Of a stretch of DNA of 64,000 bases, positions 14,875-22,308 are shown piece after piece (the first letter of the stretch is position 1; every line of letters starts with the position of its first letter). This DNA is from Nanobdellota archaeon (GTDB taxonomy: Archaea > Nanobdellota > Nanobdellia > Pacearchaeales > GW2011-AR1), in the NCBI GenBank assembly GCA_038046005.1, contig JBBSXB010000001.1, positions 107,213 through 171,212 on the forward strand, read 5' to 3'. The position numbers and the translations under genes were made by a program. The notes beneath the pieces were generated by a model. It was not told the DNA's origin, made no database searches, and was given only the letters and a program-made list of their open reading frames with translations.

Positions 14875-15654
14875 TCAATCTTTTATTTTATTTATTCCCA
14901 GCGTTTCAAATTTATTCTGGACATGATTAAACAGCGTCGAGGAAATCAAAGGTTGATGCACTCCGGGATGTGTTTGATTATCAAATTTTACTTTTCCCAA
15001 ATAAGCCTGATTAGTGAGAATTTTCTTTAGGCCGTTTACAGAAAAACCATATTTTTTTGACAGCTGTGTTAAACTTATTTTCTGGTTTAAAAAATCTTGG
15101 AATACTTCATTGACAAGGTAAGAATTTTCTGCTGGAATAAGTTTTTTATCGACCATTTTATAGCCAAATGGTGCCCTCGTTATTGGATTTCCATCACGGG
15201 CTTTTTTATCCATACTGAACTTTGTTCTTTCCCCAGTAACATTTCTTTCAAATTCTGCAAAAGCAGATATTATATGAAACATTAACTTTCCTGAAGCGCT
15301 TGTTGTTTCAATTTTGTCCTGCAAAGATATGAAATCAACACCCCATTGTTTTAGTTTTTCTATGGTTTCTATTAAATCTCGCAAAGAACGGGAAAATCTA
15401 TCAAGTTTGTATACGAAAATTGCCTGGAATTTGTGATTTCTCGCATCTTCAAGTAACTCAACTATTTCTGGCCTACCTTTGATATCTTTGGCAGACTTAC
15501 CTTCGTCTTTGTATATTCTTAGAACTTCGTAACCTAAAGCAGAAGCATAGTTTTTAAGTGCTTCTTCTTGTGCCGACATCGAAATTCCATGCTTGACTTG
15601 TTCTTCTGTTGAGACTCTTATGTAAATTGCTGCTAGGGGTTTTATTTGATTCAT
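14875..15654 (-). CDS. Serine recombinase (resolvase domain plus recombinase domain)
   Basis: YIRVST catalytic Ser motif, KLDRFSRS, AEFER, APFGY; no zinc-ribbon/coiled-coil tail. Confidence 0.93.
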   Translation of the reverse strand: MNQIKPLAAIYIRVSTEEQVKHGISMSAQEEALKNYASALGYEVLRIYKDEGKSAKDIKGRPEIVELLEDARNHKFQAIFVYKLDRFSRSLRDLIETIEKLKQWGVDFISLQDKIETTSASGKLMFHIISAFAEFERNVTGERTKFSMDKKARDGNPITRAPFGYKMVDKKLIPAENSYLVNEVFQDFLNQKISLTQLSKKYGFSVNGLKKILTNQAYLGKVKFDNQTHPGVHQPLISSTLFNHVQNKFETLGINKIKD

Positions 15655-16301
15655 GCTTTCACGCCTATCAAAACCGTCCAAACAGGACCAACAGATTTAA
15701 TTTTCAGGTCTTGGCAATAATTTGAAAGAAGAACCTTAATGTTAGTTAAGTCTACTCTATCAAATGAAGCTTTGTCTAAGACAGTTTTGTCTTCCTTTAT
15801 AGACATAACCTTAAAGCCCAAGTAGGAATAATATTTTCTTAAAAAGGTTGTTGTTCTTTTGTCTCTTTTCCAAGTGAATATCAAAATTGTGCCTCCTCTT
15901 TTTGTTACTCTTAAAATTTCTCTTAATAGTTTCTCTTTGGAATCAATGCTTCCAATGAGATTATAAGCCGCATAAGTTACGTCAAAAAAATTGTCTGGAA
16001 AAGTCATGTTGAAAGCATCCATGTTTAAAATCTCAACATTAGGAGAGTTTGCAAGATTTTTTCGAGCAATTTTTAATACTGATTCGTTATTATCTATGCC
16101 AACAAGTTTTTTCACGAACTGAAACAACTTGTCTGCAGGTCTACCTGTCCCACAACCAACATCTAGGACAACTTTGTTTTGGCATATTTTTTTTAAAAGG
16201 TTGAACTCATATTTGAATGACTCTTTAGCCTCCTTTAATGGTTTTTCTACTGCTTTTACTTGCTCTCTGACATACTCTTGACCATAATCTCTCTTTTCCA
16301 C
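15651..16301 (-). CDS. Class I SAM-dependent methyltransferase
   Basis: VLDVGCGTG, FPDNFFD, RVTKRGG; stop overlaps the recombinase start. Confidence 0.9.
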   Translation of the reverse strand: MEKRDYGQEYVREQVKAVEKPLKEAKESFKYEFNLLKKICQNKVVLDVGCGTGRPADKLFQFVKKLVGIDNNESVLKIARKNLANSPNVEILNMDAFNMTFPDNFFDVTYAAYNLIGSIDSKEKLLREILRVTKRGGTILIFTWKRDKRTTTFLRKYYSYLGFKVMSIKEDKTVLDKASFDRVDLTNIKVLLSNYCQDLKIKSVGPVWTVLIGVKA

Positions 16302-16951: not shown

Positions 16952-17119
16952 CTATTTCTTTCTCGATTGATAGTTTCTCATCAATTTGCCTACACCTACA
17001 ATGAGCCAAGCCAAAGCAATTAGCCATGCGGAAAGTGTTATACCAATATCAAGGCCAATAAGTGGTAGTATAAGTAAAACACCGACTAATGTGACAAGCC
17101 AAGCTGTTACCTTTGCCAT
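16952..17119 (-). CDS. 55-aa two-helix membrane protein (not in ORF track)
   Basis: MAKVTAWLVTLVGVLLILPLIGLDIGITLSAWLIALAWLIVGVGKLMRNYQSRKK; strong SD AAGGAGG; paralog at 39415..39561. Confidence 0.8.
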   Translation of the reverse strand: MAKVTAWLVTLVGVLLILPLIGLDIGITLSAWLIALAWLIVGVGKLMRNYQSRKK

Positions 17120-17304
17120 TTCAACCCTCCTTTGATATACCCTAAAGAAAACAAGGGTTATAAGGTTTTTGCTAGCTTGAAGATTAGAGATTCAATTGTG
17201 TTATTAATTTGTAAAACATACAATTAATGCGGCGAGAGTTGGAATATTCTGATAACAATAATCTTACAAATTTCGCGCCATTTTTCGACATCAATCTCTT
17301 TAGG

Positions 17305-17337
17305 CCTGCCACAGTTGTGCACTTAGGTTGGCTAAGT
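17305..17337 (+). repeat. 33-bp palindromic direct repeat, copy 2
   Basis: CCTGCCACAGTTGTGCACTTAGGTTGGCTAAGT, 31/33 identical to copy 1. Confidence 0.9.
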
Positions 17338-17370
17338 ATATGCTGAGCTAGTTAAGACATGTAGAAAATG

Positions 17371-17545
17371 GTTGTTTAAACATGTGTTTTTGTGTTTAAT
17401 CGACGGAAAAATTGATTAGAAATCGCTAAGAAAAACAGGTGTTGATTAGGGTGTTTGTCCGTTTAAACAGTGTTTATGGTTGTTTTAAACAGCTGTTTTG
17501 CCATTAAAAATAGGGAAAAACATCATATTTTAAGACAAAAACATG
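17371..17545. repeat. Dense TGTTT/AAACA (GTTTAAAC) motif array
   Basis: About a dozen TGTTT or AAACA copies in ~175 bp, including GTTTAAACA and AAACAGCTGTTT. Confidence 0.65.
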
Positions 17546-17666
17546 CTAAAAAATAAATGAATTTCCCTCCAAAAAATTGGGTGCGAGATAGATAAAAATT
17601 GAGGTAAGATGAAATTTACGACGTAAAAAAAGAAATATTTATAAAGGTTGAAAATCTAAATTGAGT

Positions 17667-18299
17667 ATGTTTGATTGGTTCTTTAAAAAAAGAGAGAAAA
17701 AAGAGTTAAAACACATAGAAGAAGATACAAAAAAGGGTTTTGAAAGTGTCAAAAAAGATATAACAGCTGTAATAGGATGGATCAAACACCTAGATTCTGA
17801 GAAAAATCTGCAACAAAAAGAGATTGAAGACATAAAAGAGGATTTGTCGACGGTAAAAAATGACATTGAAAGCATTAAAAATATCATAACTATGATGAAT
17901 GAATTAAAACCTCAAGGAGTGTTTAAAACAAACAGACAGGTGTTTAAAGAACAAACACCTGTTTATGCTGTTCAAACAGTTGACCAAACAGGCGTTCAAA
18001 CACCAAATTTAAACCAATTTTCAGTAACTGAAAGAGCAATTCTATGGATTCTCTTAAACTCAGAAATGAAACTGGGATATGAAGATCTAGCTGCAATGTT
18101 GGGAAAAGAAAAGTCCACCATAAGGGGGCAGATAAATAGTATAAAACAAAAAAGTGAAAATTTGATAAGTGAAATTACTGAAAAAAATGGAAAAAAGAGA
18201 GTATATATAAGTGAAGAAATGAGGGAAAAAATGCTGAAAAAGTCAAAAGTGAGAGTTGGAAATAAGAAAAAAACTGAGAAAAAAGAAGAAAAAGTCTGA
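17667..18299 (+). CDS. Coiled-coil plus C-terminal winged-helix protein
   Basis: Heptad-rich N-terminus, VQT-rich linker, TERAILWILL...GYEDLAAMLGKEKSTIRGQINSIKQK helix-turn-helix. Confidence 0.8.
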   Translation: MFDWFFKKREKKELKHIEEDTKKGFESVKKDITAVIGWIKHLDSEKNLQQKEIEDIKEDLSTVKNDIESIKNIITMMNELKPQGVFKTNRQVFKEQTPVYAVQTVDQTGVQTPNLNQFSVTERAILWILLNSEMKLGYEDLAAMLGKEKSTIRGQINSIKQKSENLISEITEKNGKKRVYISEEMREKMLKKSKVRVGNKKKTEKKEEKV

Positions 18300-18497
18300 A
18301 AAGTAAGGAAAAATCAATAAAAAACGATTAAAAAAACAAAAAGTGAGAGTTAAATTACAAGAAAAACAATAAAAAATAAATTACTAAGTGAAAAGTGAGA
18401 TGAAAAAATAAAAATGAATTTAAAAAGATTACAAAAGTCTGAAAATGAGAGATACAATAAATGGTAAAAACATAGTTAAAAATAGAAAAATGAGAGA
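18239..18497 (+). repeat. Phased AAAGTGAGA / AAAGTCTGAAAA repeat array
   Basis: Copies near 18246, 18291, 18340, 18392, 18435 and 18489, spaced about 45-55 bp on an A-rich strand. Confidence 0.6.
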
Positions 18498-18641
18498 AAA
18501 ATAAACTTTGAAAAATTGGACTAACTTGAAAAATTAAAAAATAGGCTTTTTAGGGGCTAAAAAGACAAAATTTATAGGTATGAAAAAATAAACAAGAAGA
18601 AAATGTTCTATTAGAAATTGTTTTGTTGAACGAATAACTAT

Positions 18642-19373
18642 TTACAATTCTCTAAGTTTTAATATTGTTTGAAGGGAGGCAATTTTCTTTAAGCCGGCTG
18701 AAACGTTTAAATGGACATTCTTATTGTTAAGTTTGATTTTATCGACGGGAATTCCCTTTGAGATGATCTTACTGATATAATCTCTTATGGAGCTTTCAGT
18801 AAGGTTAAGCTTCAGGGCAATGGCCTTATAATCAGCATATCCTTGCTCTTCCTCTAGCTGGTATAATGTTGAAAATACTAAAATTTCCTTTTCTGTAAGC
18901 TTCTTGAATTTCAGCCTTATTTCTTTTTTTAAGGTATCTAAAGATTCAAGTATTTTGGAGGCATCGTGAAGGGTAGTTTTGGGAATCTCTAAAGGAAAAA
19001 TCAAGCTATTTTGTGTCTGTTGGTCTGTCTGTTGGTCTGTCTGTCTGTCTGCTGGAACCCCATCATTTCCTATGGAAATAGCTTGATTTTGGGGTTTTAA
19101 AGCCTTAAAAGACTCATTATCTGCTGGGCTTTGTGTTGAGGTTGTCTTATTCTCCAAACTATGTGATGGAGTTAAAAAAGTTGAATTTTGAAGTATTTTA
19201 GAAGAAATAGAAATTAATTCCCTGTTTAAATCCTTTAACTCTCTAACCTCTTCCCCTAAATTGGAAAGTTTCCAATTCAACTCCACTAGGTTGGTTTTTA
19301 GAGAATTTAACTCGTAACTAAGAGAAGAGATGTCTTGTTTAACTTTTTGAAAGGCCTCTTTTATCTCATCCAT
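18642..19373 (-). CDS. Coiled-coil plus C-terminal winged-helix protein, similar architecture to 17667..18299
   Basis: IKEAFQKVKQDI N-terminus, DRQTDQQTDQQT linker, LTEKEILVF...YKAIALKLNLTESSIRDYISKI HTH. Confidence 0.8.
   Translation of the reverse strand: MDEIKEAFQKVKQDISSLSYELNSLKTNLVELNWKLSNLGEEVRELKDLNRELISISSKILQNSTFLTPSHSLENKTTSTQSPADNESFKALKPQNQAISIGNDGVPADRQTDQQTDQQTQNSLIFPLEIPKTTLHDASKILESLDTLKKEIRLKFKKLTEKEILVFSTLYQLEEEQGYADYKAIALKLNLTESSIRDYISKIISKGIPVDKIKLNNKNVHLNVSAGLKKIASLQTILKLREL
19014..19078 (-). promoter_or_regulatory. Intragenic ORB-like box followed by ACAG/ACC repeats
   Basis: Minus strand TTTCCATAGGAAATGATGGGGT (19078-19057), then CAGACAGACAGACAGACCAACAGACAGACCAACAGACA. 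Confidence 0.6.
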
Positions 19374-19422
19374 TTTAATTTATAATAAAAAGAGTATAAA
19401 AAGATTATAGTAATGGAGAATA

Positions 19423-19701
19423 TTAAAAATTTTGAGGTTGACTTTTTTTATAGGAGGAATAAGCTTCATCGCTTAATTTCCACCGGGATCTTCTTAGATA
19501 GACTTTTCCGAGTGGATTTTTGTTTACCTCTACAATAAGTTTCTTGGCTTTCAGATCCTTGAGAAGTCTTTTAACAAATTCCTCATCCCGAGCTATTTCT
19601 CTTGCTACATAATACGTAAACATAGGTTGGGGTGAAACAGAATAGAGAAAAGCTAGAATCTGTTCGCATATCTTCTGCTTTTTCTCTTTTGATATGTACA
19701 T
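19423..19701 (-). CDS. Small winged-helix protein
   Basis: MYISKEKKQKICEQILAFL...VAREIARDEEFVKRLLKDL...RRSRWKL. Confidence 0.7.
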   Translation of the reverse strand: MYISKEKKQKICEQILAFLYSVSPQPMFTYYVAREIARDEEFVKRLLKDLKAKKLIVEVNKNPLGKVYLRRSRWKLSDEAYSSYKKSQPQNF

Positions 19702-19759
19702 TAAAGGAAAAATAAAAGGGTTTATATAAAGGTTTTTGAAAGAAAGATTATTATGGGGG

Positions 19760-20176
19760 TTAATTCTCAATCTCGTCCTTTTTTAAAGAAGGTAATTGAA
19801 TATGGAGGGGTATGCCCAGCTCTTCTTCTAATTGAAGCGCCTTGAGGGTCGATTTCCTTAAAATAGAGTTAAGGATAAAGAGATTGAAGGCTTCTGGAGC
19901 ATTTTTATCCTTCCATGTACTCAACACTTCTTTGGATATTTTAGGGTCAACAGAAACAAGAGTATTTCCCTCAAAAAAGATCTTGGCGAAGTCCGGTTCA
20001 TAATTAAGAGAAAAACTGAATTTCAAGTTCAAAAGAGATTCTTTAGAGTTAAATATATCTGCCTTAGCTTCACTGATATCGAGTATATCCATTTTGGTGT
20101 TTATATTTACACCTTTAAAGTTGGTGGAATTTCGTTCCGCGTTTATCCTTGTAAAATTAAATCCTAAGAGTTTCAT
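19760..20176 (-). CDS. Conserved hypothetical protein, possibly SecB-like fold
   Basis: Beta-rich N-terminus followed by a helix; TATA upstream; fold assignment is a guess. Confidence 0.55.
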   Translation of the reverse strand: MKLLGFNFTRINAERNSTNFKGVNINTKMDILDISEAKADIFNSKESLLNLKFSFSLNYEPDFAKIFFEGNTLVSVDPKISKEVLSTWKDKNAPEAFNLFILNSILRKSTLKALQLEEELGIPLHIQLPSLKKDEIEN

Positions 20177-20215
20177 ACTAAATGGTAAAGAAAATTATTT
20201 TTAAATATTTAGGTA

Positions 20216-20485
20216 CTAAATTAAGTCTTCCTCAGATACTATAACAAAATCGCCTATGGCGATTATAGCACTATAAGGGACTAATAAGTCATTTGAAGAA
20301 GTTTTTTCAAGATTTAAGTTCCTCGTGTAAGGTGTTGCATCTTTAACAACTAAACTGATAAGCTCACCAGATCTAGTCTCAAAGGTAACATCTTTGACAA
20401 AACCAAGTCTTTTACCCTCTTTCGTGACAATCATCTTGCCTAAAAGCGCACTAAATGGATTTTTATTGTCTTGCATGTTAAGCAT
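20216..20485 (-). CDS. PRC-barrel protein (CdpB-like)
   Basis: LLGKMIVTKEGKRLGFVKDV...VPYSAIIAIGDFVIV. Confidence 0.88.
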   Translation of the reverse strand: MLNMQDNKNPFSALLGKMIVTKEGKRLGFVKDVTFETRSGELISLVVKDATPYTRNLNLEKTSSNDLLVPYSAIIAIGDFVIVSEEDLI

Positions 20486-20576
20486 AGAAGAGATTTGTTT
20501 ATAAATTTTTCTGTACCAACAAATAGATTTGAAAGAATATAGATAACTGGATTAATGGAAGATAATAACGAGCAGA

Positions 20577-21085
20577 CACACTCCTTGATTTCGTTTGGAA
20601 AAGATTTATAAAGGATTTTTTAATTTTTTTTGTTTTTGTTTTATTTATAAATTTTTCTATAATAATATAATATAATATAATATAATTAACTTATCTTGAA
20701 TTATTATTATTATTATTATTATTATTAATTTGTATTAAGCCGCTAATTTTATTGTGGGATTTAAAAGAACAAAATGCTAATCTGGAGTTCACAAGGACTT
20801 TAATGGTTCTTATTCATGATAGTTATTATTAAATTTTCTAACAAAAGATATTCCAATCTCCCATATAACATTAAAGTTGAAGTTTTAAAAATTAAAATTA
20901 TCATAAAAGCCATGATAACTTATATTTACCAATAATCATCTTATCTTTAAAGAAGCGTTTTCCATTAGAAATTAAGGCGTCTTTCTTTCTTAGTAGTCAT
21001 AATCCTTTATAAAAAGAATACTTCTTTTTCCGTTGAGGAAATTTTTGAATAAACAATCTCCAGTGGAAATTAGCGTGTGGGTGTG
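20577..21085. other. Putative replication origin oriC
   Basis: ORBs: TTTCCAAACGAAATCAAGGAG (minus, 20581-20601), TTTCCATTAGAAATTAAGGCG (20959) and TCTCCAGTGGAAATTAGCG (21057); AT-only TATAA and TTA repeats at ~20655-20730; adjacent to orc1/cdc6. Confidence 0.85.
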
Positions 21086-21096
21086 AAAAGAATAAA

Positions 21097-22308
21097 ATGA
21101 CTAACGAACTAGACCAAATTTTTGAATCGTTTACGAAAAATAATATTTTCAAAGATAAATCTCTATTACAGGCCTCATATAAACCGGACAAAATTCTTCA
21201 TAGAGATCAACAAGTCAACCAGATTGCGTCTATTTTAGCCCCCGTTCTCCGAGGAGAGAAAACCAGTAATTTATTTCTTTATGGAAAAACTGGGACTGGG
21301 AAAACCCTTTCTGTTTATTATGTTAGGGAAGAATTGATGAAGAGAATTAATAAAAGCGAGGATTTTAAATTGAGAATAGAATATCTCAATTGTAAATTAA
21401 AGAAAGTTTCAGACACCGAATATAGAATTTTGGCAGAACTTGTAAAGAAATTTGGTGGAGAAGTGCCTGCAACGGGGCTTCCTACAGAGTCTGTTTATAA
21501 TAAATTTATAGAACTCATAGACAAAGAGAAACAAATTATAGTCTTGATTTTAGATGAGATTGATCAAACTGTCAAAAAGATTTCTAGCGATTTTTTGTAC
21601 AACCTAACAAGGTTAAACTCAGAACTTTCAAAAACGCAACTTTGCATTGTTGGAATAAGCAACAATTTGACTTTTTTGGAGGAACTTGACCCAAGAGTCA
21701 GGAGTTCCTTATCTGAAGAAGAAATTGTTTTTCCACCTTATAATGCTTTACAACTTAAAGATATCTTAAACCGGAGATCAGAGCACGCATTCAAGGAAGG
21801 AGTTTTACAACCTGGAGTCATTGACAAATGCTCGGCTTTTGCAGCAAGGGAGCATGGTGATGCAAGAAGGGCCTTGGACCTTTTGCGAATTGCTGGTGAG
21901 CTGGCCGAAAGGGAAGGGAGTAAAAAAATTTTGTTAAAACATATTGATGAGGCAAATGACAAAATTGAGAAAGACAAAATACTAGATGTTATAAAAACAG
22001 AGCCAAAACAATTCCAACTTGTTCTTTACTCTATAATGAAACTTTCAGACAAAAAAAACGGAGAGCCCCTGTTTACTGGAGATGTCTATAATTTGTATCA
22101 GGAAATTTGTTTAAAAAATAAACTAGAAGTTTTAACCCAAAGAAGGATGAGTGACATAATCCAGGAATTTGACATGTTGGGGATTATTAATGTTAAGGTT
22201 ATTTCAAAGGGGAGAGGGGGGAGGATGAGAGAAATTAAACTGGCTATCTCGAAGGATGTTCTCTTCAAAGCAAGAGAAATTGTTGAAGATTCTTTAGATT
22301 ATAAATAA
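21097..22308 (+). CDS. cdc6: Orc1/Cdc6 replication initiator
   Basis: YGKTGTGKT, ILDEID, DPRVRSSL, GDARRALDLLR, C-terminal winged helix. Confidence 0.97.
   Translation: MTNELDQIFESFTKNNIFKDKSLLQASYKPDKILHRDQQVNQIASILAPVLRGEKTSNLFLYGKTGTGKTLSVYYVREELMKRINKSEDFKLRIEYLNCKLKKVSDTEYRILAELVKKFGGEVPATGLPTESVYNKFIELIDKEKQIIVLILDEIDQTVKKISSDFLYNLTRLNSELSKTQLCIVGISNNLTFLEELDPRVRSSLSEEEIVFPPYNALQLKDILNRRSEHAFKEGVLQPGVIDKCSAFAAREHGDARRALDLLRIAGELAEREGSKKILLKHIDEANDKIEKDKILDVIKTEPKQFQLVLYSIMKLSDKKNGEPLFTGDVYNLYQEICLKNKLEVLTQRRMSDIIQEFDMLGIINVKVISKGRGGRMREIKLAISKDVLFKAREIVEDSLDYK

Follow-up and report, generated by a model that had tools for sequence, protein, structure and literature searches.

Candidate protein-binding sites encoded within the linkers of two conserved genes beside the inferred replication origin of a Nanobdellota archaeon

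Background

Why do two neighbouring genes close to a replication origin carry short DNA repeats inside their own coding sequences? The question is raised by a stretch of 64,000 nucleotides (the window) from an uncultivated Nanobdellota archaeon with a genome of 875 kb that is 98% complete (GenBank assembly GCA_038046005.1, contig JBBSXB010000001.1, positions 107,213 to 171,212 of the forward strand). Two convergent genes, named here A (17667-18299, + strand, 210 aa from ATG, in an open reading frame that starts at TTG 17661) and B (18642-19373, - strand, 243 aa), lie to one side of orc1/cdc6 (21097-22308, + strand; the sole copy in the genome) and of the origin, oriC, inferred next to it. A first-pass annotation, made from the sequence of the window, had described both products as proteins with an N-terminal coiled coil, a low-complexity linker encoded by DNA repeats and a C-terminal winged helix, and had proposed that they bind arrays in and around their own genes and act in initiation control or origin segregation. 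Here the repeats, the two proteins and their surroundings were compared among related genomes.

Results

Palindromes within and upstream of gene A

The repeats described in the two linkers (17918-18005 in A and 19014-19051 in B) are real according to Tandem Repeats Finder (TRF) and motif counts. Upstream of A, where TGTTT/AAACA was said to occur about a dozen times, 13 copies were counted in 17340-17560, the maximum among 1276 equal tiles of the window (mean 1.37). Nine more copies are within 17918-18005, and a repeat of period 12 was detected by TRF at 17970-18002. The repeat unit is a 12-bp palindrome, AAACA-NN-TGTT(T). Four of its six distinct sites in the window are located at 17378, 17433, 17487 and 17953 (nine strand matches against 2.1 expected), and near copies were found at 17934 and 17986. 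When the strict form AAACA-[GC][GC]-TGTTT was searched in the 875 kb, two sites were obtained, both at the A locus, against 0.4 expected. Three palindromes (17378-17389, 17433-17444 and 17487-17498, with spacings of 55 and 54 bp) stand in the 540-bp non-coding stretch before the gene. The in-gene array (17920-18003) occupies the linker-encoding part and has its best copies at 17934-17945 and 17953-17964 and weaker ones at 17974-17997.

The locus was compared with a near set of 80 species-level genomes (gene A at 61-88% identity) and a distant set of 20 orthologous loci (gene A at 25-46% identity). The relatives of the window genome carry labels Nano-, Pace- or Woesearchaeota. In-gene palindromes, 2-7 per gene with spacings of 12 and 21 bp, were present in 69 of 70 loci of the near set and in 19 of 20 of the distant set, and their offsets from the start of the gene are fixed in the relatives (237, 258, 277, 298 and 310). 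The codon alignment of A consisted of 72 of 81 loci, as nine without a peptide anchor for A were dropped (also from the offset and density counts). In these 72 loci the same 12-mer is read in two frames, K-Q-(L/V)-F and Q-T-x-V-(Y/Q). In the former, Leu 85 and 92 are encoded by CTG in 18/19 and 21/26 cases compared with 4% elsewhere in A, and Gln 84 and 91 by CAG in 26/28 and 40/41 compared with 27% elsewhere. In the latter, Gln 103, 107 and 111 are CAA in 71/71, 70/70 and 70/70, and Thr is mostly ACA. Residues 98, 105 and 109 vary among Gly, Ala and Pro while the third base stays T; the codon of the variable residue is GGT, GCT or CCT in 31/32, 20/21, 11/12, 43/44, 22/23, 40/42 and 30/30 cases. 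It is at this Gly/Ala/Pro codon that the two centre bases of the palindrome vary, with the third base fixed.

Third-position entropy at the conserved codons of A is 0.34 in the linker and 0.79 outside it (nominal p 5e-5, inflated by relatedness). The distant orthologs share the motif RRACA-NN-TGTYY, with 66 in-gene matches in 19 of 20 loci against three in about 178 kb of flanking DNA, and depending on the lineage this DNA encodes V-Q-T-A-V-Q or S-K-Q-L-S-K. Given the two-frame reading and the codon pattern, peptide-level selection cannot account for the A linker; judged from its codons, the array is under nucleotide-level selection. The expectation that the linkers would be conserved as DNA regardless of frame was therefore borne out, codon preference being overridden in two reading frames, and the DNA-level role suggested for the repeats is well supported by this conservation.

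Upstream of A, 56 of 70 near loci have at least one palindrome and 46 have at least two, 100-300 bp before the start of the gene and at a density of 3.45 per kb against a background of 0.24 per kb. The spacings between these copies are most strongly periodic at 10.5 bp (R 0.46, n 73), which is what proteins aligned along one side of the double helix would give. The two centre bases of the palindrome are not fixed (in-gene: GG 111, GC 71 and CC 14), which argues against an RNA helix.

In four metagenome runs, the summed contig word depth was raised over the A linker (17922-18058; X1: 276 against about 160). This fits identical linker DNA being common to other organisms in the same samples.

Origin recognition box within gene B

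By its sequence, the element conserved in gene B (19054-19079, - strand) is an origin recognition box (ORB); it encodes I-S-I-G-N-D-G-V. It is an exact match to TTCCANNGGAAAT, with a dyad core TTCCA-N3-GGAA(A/T), a short spacer and a G run, and its consensus over 48 genomes is ATTTCCAYWGGAAATGAAGGGGTTCC. This consensus, followed by GACA-type repeats, encodes the conserved stretch I-S-(T/I)-G-N-E-G-V-P-T-D-R-Q-T. Codons of B were counted in the 49 of 81 loci with a peptide anchor for B. Ser100 is TCC in 49/49 (13% elsewhere in B) and Asp109 is GAC in 45/45 (25% elsewhere); in the same conserved stretch, Gly is GGG in 48/49 (25% elsewhere), Pro is CCA in 43/44 (22% elsewhere) and Gln is CAG in 47/49 (25% elsewhere). 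Third-position entropy is 0.13 in the box stretch and 1.07 outside it. The box-encoded peptide is kept in 232 of 240 B-family proteins.

A matrix made from the B box was too tight to recover the origin boxes, and the one used in its place drew only on 127 origin-spacer sites from 56 genomes other than this one. When the whole 875-kb genome was scanned, four strong matches were obtained, at 20578 (29.5 bits), 19055 in B (29.1), 20957 (27.4) and 21055 (19.7). The fifth match reached only 13.2 bits, and the B site is the second best in the genome. Among 81 loci, 265 matches of at least 18 bits were distributed over the origin spacer (167), B (81), other intergenic DNA (15), cdc6 (1) and the PolD small subunit gene (1); the origin-spacer counts are circular with the matrix and those in B are independent of it. 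The box was found in B in 76 of 80 near loci (tblastn coordinates, all 80 loci having B), at a median of 1608 bp from the nearest origin box. In the distant set, the strict pattern recovered it in 17 of 20 loci; locus L086 has a variant, L093 has none and L102 is without B.

The B element thus fits the sequence definition of an ORB and, on the codon evidence, is under the same kind of nucleotide-level selection as the A array. Like that array, it is retained in orthologs whose proteins share only 26-49% identity. It departs from the usual position of such boxes, as it is in coding sequence and not in non-coding DNA flanking an unwinding element. Its orientation is that of the left origin box: the dyad end points to the AT-rich core of the origin. 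The array in B had been taken as B's own binding site. This does not stand as proposed: an ORB is the expected site of Orc1/Cdc6 and hence not necessarily that of B.

Directly 3' of the box on the B coding strand are the GACA-type 4/12-nt repeats (19014-19051, - strand, detected by TRF), which encode the peptide DRQTDQQTDQQT. Every lineage has a tandem tract of 4- or 12-nt units directly 3' of the G run. The unit is GACA, CATT, CAAT, CACT, CAAA, GCAC or a 12-mer, and the unit differences give different four-residue peptide repeats among lineages. In 240 proteins, the repeat type tracks the recognition-helix type of B and also lineage. The relation is not one-to-one (KQTN occurs with H, G or F), and this covariation is a lead and not independent evidence.

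A tetranucleotide tract in the reading frame of B would in principle allow frame switching. The contigs of the four metagenome runs (17100-21200) break at the repeats 19019-19056 and 20613-20738.

Inferred origin beside cdc6

The origin was placed at 20577-21080, in the 611-bp AT-rich spacer between a PRC-barrel gene and cdc6, because three ORBs, an AT-rich core and cdc6 are adjacent there. The ORBs are at 20577-20602 (- strand), 20957-20982 (+) and 21055-21080 (+), and the core is at 20600-20740 (GC 0.085). The layout of this spacer is fixed in 57 genomes, with two ORBs that share the strand of cdc6 and lie roughly 135 and 35 bp upstream of it, and the third on the other strand, beyond the AT-rich core. 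GC skew gave no origin signal within the window.

Proteins A and B

AlphaFold2 models confirmed the architecture described for the convergent pair. The model of A consists of an N-terminal helix (3-80), a disordered linker (81-114) and a winged helix (120-180; predicted local distance difference test above 90 over 120-180), and A also has a basic tail. The model of B consists of an N-terminal helix (2-63), a disordered linker (64-134) and a winged helix (161-224). BLASTP showed no similarity between A and B (E 0.14). When the profiles of the two families were compared with hhalign, they aligned colinearly from the N-terminal helix to the recognition helix (probability 91.6%, E 8e-7), and A and B are read as distant paralogs on account of this alignment. 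Each is single-copy in the genome, and over 1,700 relatives of each were found in the protein collection.

The linkers had been called low-complexity. They are not variable spacers: although predicted to be disordered, both are among the best conserved parts of their proteins, and the linker peptide of A is nearly invariant. The recognition helix of A is also nearly invariant in 47 sequences (35% mean column identity), and that of B varies among lineages. The N-terminus of A has the motif M-F-x-(W/F)-F-x-(K/R)-(K/R) (residues 1-13, 17667-17705), which is conserved down to 31% overall identity and absent from B; it looks like a short anchor for membrane or partner, which is speculation from the sequence.

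No Pfam family scored above cut-off for A or B, and no NCBIfam family did for A. A match of HTH_ParB was below threshold (E 0.059; 14 bits against a cut-off of 22.6). A Foldseek search with the DNA-binding domain of A returned generic winged helices, the nearest being AbfR2/Lrs14, MepR/MarR and SmtB (E about 5e-4). Searches of the PDB with the profiles of A and B and with the single sequence of the neighbouring protein C gave nothing significant. When 1.84 billion cluster representatives were searched with a profile, only 259 matches were obtained at E of 0.001 or lower. In a sample of 401 genomes of the phylum, 69 had a match and 44 of them a full-length one with E of 1e-30 or lower; in the window's own family, the corresponding count is 25 of 27. 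A mobile-element origin was considered and rejected, as searches of phage records and IMG/VR gave no relative of A and a search of plasmid records gave none of B.

Gene order on the origin side

Linkage of homologs to cdc6 had been set beforehand as a test, and it was observed. Among the 55 near loci with at least 6.5 kb downstream of A, cdc6 is kept in 53, at 2.8-6.0 kb from the start of A (median 3334 bp). Over all 80 near loci, B is convergent with A in 79, the genes for C, D and the PRC-barrel protein are present in 70 each, cdc6 was seen in 56 and a serine recombinase gene in 55; most of the missing neighbours correspond to contig ends. In the two exceptions (L041 and L043), the PolD large subunit gene is on the opposite strand at +7.2 kb and the origin/polymerase block is apparently inverted; both loci keep the palindromes and the box in B. 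The convergent pair was also found in 19 of 20 distant loci, where the 7-8 kb or so fetched included the PRC-barrel gene in 10 of 20 and cdc6 in 6 of 20, with inserted genes. The linkage of A and B to the origin side is conserved across the clade.

Neighbouring genes and other repeats

At the upstream end of the region are the ribosomal genes L18e-L13-S9 (+ strand). The small serine recombinase gene (14875-15681, - strand; 268 aa with resolvase and recombinase domains) adjoins the ribosomal gene S9, and the zinc-ribbon part is absent from its product. Its kept place (55/80 near and 3/20 distant loci) suggests a resident, domesticated enzyme rather than a mobile element. Between it and the 540-bp spacer are genes for a methyltransferase, a DUF4377 protein and a 55-aa membrane protein, all on the - strand.

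Between B and the origin are three genes on the - strand. Gene C (19423-19695) encodes a small conserved protein. Its start is uncertain, as the open reading frame reaches 19770 and has 25 extra codons upstream of the likely ATG that overlap the end of gene D (19695-19770). Gene D (19760-20176) encodes a conserved archaeal protein of an unnamed family; an Atlas structure search found a weak likeness to DUF1149/SecB-like models (template modelling score 0.49-0.63), which is a lead only. The last is the PRC-barrel gene (20216-20485; Pfam PF05239, E 2.2e-9). The identification of a PRC-barrel gene before the origin was therefore correct, whereas the winged helix ascribed to the third small gene, C, was not recovered (no match in Pfam, NCBIfam or PDB sequence searches). 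The genes for the PolD small and large subunits follow cdc6.

The A-rich spacer between the convergent genes A and B is 342 bp long (GC 0.21) and ranges from 88 to 653 bp in relatives. Five direct repeats AAA(A/G)TGAGA(G/T), about 50 bp apart, run from the last codons of A into this spacer (18246-18497, + strand). Within A they encode K-V-R-V, where the codons AAA (Lys) and GTG (Val) hardly vary. The density of the core motif in 46 loci is 5.6 per kb at the end of A and in the spacer and 0.07 per kb elsewhere, and four of the 13 copies in the genome belong to this array. An Rfam scan (16.5-21.2 kb) and a tRNA scan (14-22 kb) gave no matches. A sigma-70 promoter scan, which is not applicable to archaea, gave counts at chance level.

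Discussion

Interpretation of the locus

We favour the reading, with a confidence midway between doubt and conviction, that an extended origin neighbourhood spans the stretch between about 17.4 kb and cdc6, and that some of its protein-binding sites are dual-coded in the linkers of the paralogous proteins A and B. Protein A would dimerise through its 80-residue helix and bind its palindromes both within its own gene and ahead of it, with several dimers side by side on the same face of the duplex. The box in B would be occupied by Orc1/Cdc6, and the lineage-specific repeats next to it may be bound by B itself. The resulting nucleoprotein structure, which would lie at 1.5-3.5 kb from the unwinding element and on one side of it, would feed back on the expression of A and B and modulate origin firing or origin positioning. 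This reading is supported by the recognition helix of A being nearly invariant as is its palindrome, and that of B varying as do its repeats.

Several points weigh against the extended neighbourhood. That A is the protein that binds the palindromes we infer by sequence reasoning only, and the single outlying ORB could simply be a plain regulatory Orc1 site. The inversion of the origin block relative to A-B in two near loci, and the extra genes between B and cdc6 (3-7 kb) in distant lineages, weaken a strictly structural view of one extended origin. Upstream palindromes are present in 2 of 20 distant loci and are confined to the window's family and close kin; they are not an ancestral design, and the in-gene array is therefore the ancestral part. 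The near relatives conserve the synteny of the whole region, a 15-kb block with the ribosomal genes included, so that the linkage of A and B to the origin partly reflects relatedness there and is inseparable from general synteny. The compared sequences are kin, and the nominal p-values for third-position entropy and 10.5-bp phasing are overstated.

A bolder form of the same idea, which we regard as unlikely, would make A and B the trans-acting halves of a ParA-independent origin-organising system of DPANN, or minimal archaeal centromere, with the cis sites dual-coded in the linkers of the two proteins. Here B would act as a cis cofactor of Orc1/Cdc6 at the outlying box, where it would recognise the repeats of its lineage, and these would evolve together with its recognition helix. 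A would coat the palindrome array and tie the origin to the membrane or to the PRC-barrel/FtsZ apparatus, with its hydrophobic-basic N-terminus and a 12-nm coiled coil as the tether.

Ordinary transcription factors with unusual operators are an explanation that we doubt but take seriously. A would autoregulate through its palindromes, by activation or as a roadblock, the Orc1/Cdc6 box would tune B, neither protein would have a role in replication or segregation, and the synteny would be inherited. The domain of A is indeed a generic winged helix nearest Lrs14/AbfR2, MarR and SmtB, its palindrome is confined in the genome to its own gene locus, as would be expected, no partition ATPase is linked, and the conserved 15-kb block of the near relatives is in agreement with inherited order. 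However, the ancestral and universal copies are in coding sequence at +237 to +320, with none over the promoter; arrays of 2-7 sites at 12- or 21-bp spacing exceed what an operator needs; and the pair stays on the origin side even in orthologs with 26-49% identity. It is much less probable that the A-B spacer and its flanking arrays form a second or the true origin, with the box in B as its recognition site and the A-rich spacer as its unwinding element. The spacer is long and A-rich, with repeats about 50 bp apart and a full ORB 400 bp away. But there is only one ORB nearby, with its dyad end turned, like that of the left origin box, towards the origin beside cdc6; the 265 strong ORB matches of the 81 loci include no inverted partner for it; the spacer shrinks to 88 bp in relatives; and the cdc6-side spacer has the classic three boxes and a core with GC of 0.085.

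The remaining explanations concern the palindromes as such. Exchange between upstream and in-gene copies by the small serine recombinase, switching A on and off, is highly improbable. The enzyme is kept upstream of A as described above, and the palindromes are of dimer type, with a free central dinucleotide and both orientations (GG and CC centres). Serine recombinase sites, however, are 26-50 bp long, with a 2-bp crossover between half-sites that each measure about 12 bp or more. Here the entire palindrome measures 12 bp, too short for such a site, and neighbouring copies can directly adjoin at a spacing of 12 bp. Moreover, 18 of the 20 distant loci lack upstream copies that could serve as partners, every A gene recovered is intact, and the contigs showed no strand-switch joints, although this last evidence is weak. 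Conservation at the level of the mRNA, as a structure or a translational control element, is scarcely credible. Tandem GC-centred copies could pair and a terminator-hairpin scan flags the region on the opposite strand, but the free centre dinucleotide would break the pairing, copies with 10.5-bp phasing are in upstream DNA that looks untranscribed, there is no Rfam match and no compensatory changes were seen. We give least credence to the view that there is no DNA-level function and that repeat peptides, AT-rich codon bias and slippage explain the pattern. The VQT and DRQT repeats could be peptide motifs, and the repeats after the box in B vary by lineage like neutral microsatellites. Yet the codons go against the genes' own bias (CTG, CAG, GAC, TCC, GGG), amino acids vary where the third base is fixed, the palindrome is read in two frames and has non-coding copies, and an independently built matrix recognises the B element as an ORB. 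This view is contradicted as regards the palindromes and the box, and is possible for the tetranucleotide tract alone.

Taken together, the first-pass interpretation is supported in part: it holds as to a role of the repeats at the DNA level, whereas the box in B need not be a site of B's own and no partition ATPase is present in the cluster.

Significance

The conserved sites inside two genes point, at the level of sequence comparison, to an undescribed layer of origin control. Origin positioning and segregation in archaea are largely unknown beyond a few model species, and the DPANN, with genomes below 1 Mb, are unstudied in the literature searched. In that search, with supplementary files outside its scope, no paper linked DPANN to origin recognition boxes or to the palindrome. 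The locus offers an uncharacterised and widespread protein pair, a candidate binding site unique in the genome and a bona fide origin box in coding sequence, and the pair and its sites are amenable to in vitro study with synthetic DNA and recombinant proteins, without cultivation. It is a natural case of dual coding, in which regulatory DNA in disordered linkers dictates both peptide and codon choice. For genome annotation this means that conserved linker 'motifs' may be DNA sites, and it bears on how extreme genome compaction is accommodated.

Comparison with known systems

In ParB-parS systems, a parS site is found inside the spo0J/parB gene, palindromes are clustered on the origin side and ParB nucleates a larger complex. 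The palindromes of the A locus likewise cluster on the origin side and inside the gene of the predicted binding protein. In contrast, A and B have neither a ParB fold nor a CTPase domain nor a linked ParA, the sites are arrayed 12-mers and the coiled coil is long. When compared with ParABS and SegAB more generally, a site cluster beside or inside the gene of the binding protein is present, with binding by A predicted. No Walker-type ATPase gene was found between 14.8 and 28 kb, ParA/MinD-like genes being only on contigs C7 and C8, and no family match above cut-off indicated a ParB, ribbon-helix-helix (RHH) or SegB-type protein, the fold being a generic winged helix.

Phage lambda carries the iterons of ori within its O gene. 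As in O, the repeated candidate sites of A are part of the coding sequence for a DNA-binding protein and fall in its linker-like portion. No AT-rich tract lies within A, and the A-rich spacer starts 300 bp downstream of the array. Unlike in O, the chromosomal origin with its Orc1 boxes is 3 kb off, and nothing marks A as an initiator. In Bacillus subtilis, RacA (HTH and coiled coil; ram sites) and Noc (N-terminal membrane-binding helix) bind clustered palindromes and tie a chromosomal region to the envelope or division apparatus. A resembles them in its hydrophobic-basic N-terminus, coiled coil and winged helix, although contact of A with membrane or divisome would be pure inference; there is no sequence relationship, and the sites of A are confined to one locus and not spread over the origin region. 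With MarR/Lrs14 factors A shares the winged-helix fold and dimer-type palindromes near its own gene. It differs in that no family profile reaches its cut-off, in the extra N-terminal helix of 60-80 residues and the long linker, and in having its sites in coding sequence and not over the promoter.

PRC-barrel proteins, one of which is encoded in the A/B cluster, have roles in division in haloarchaea, as far as the accounts consulted go. HpaAB of Haloferax (PMC13722703) was considered and rejected; it is a ParA/RHH pair and is unrelated.

A precedent for ORBs in coding sequence is known from Pyrococcus and Thermococcus. According to the sections of Matsunaga et al. (2007, PMC1904270) on this locus, a cluster of ORBs and mini-ORBs is located inside dp1, the gene of the PolD small subunit, a few kb from oriC; it is conserved in related genomes and lies in a region occupied in vivo by Cdc6/Orc1. 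The P. furiosus ORB oligonucleotides given there share the TTCCA-N3-GGAA core and the G run with the box in B. Unlike the dp1 cluster, the site described here is a single full box, identified by its sequence in another gene that lies on the opposite side of oriC. It is also distinguished by its location in the disordered linker of a DNA-binding protein, where it is flanked by 4/12-nt repeats and overrides the codon preference of the gene.

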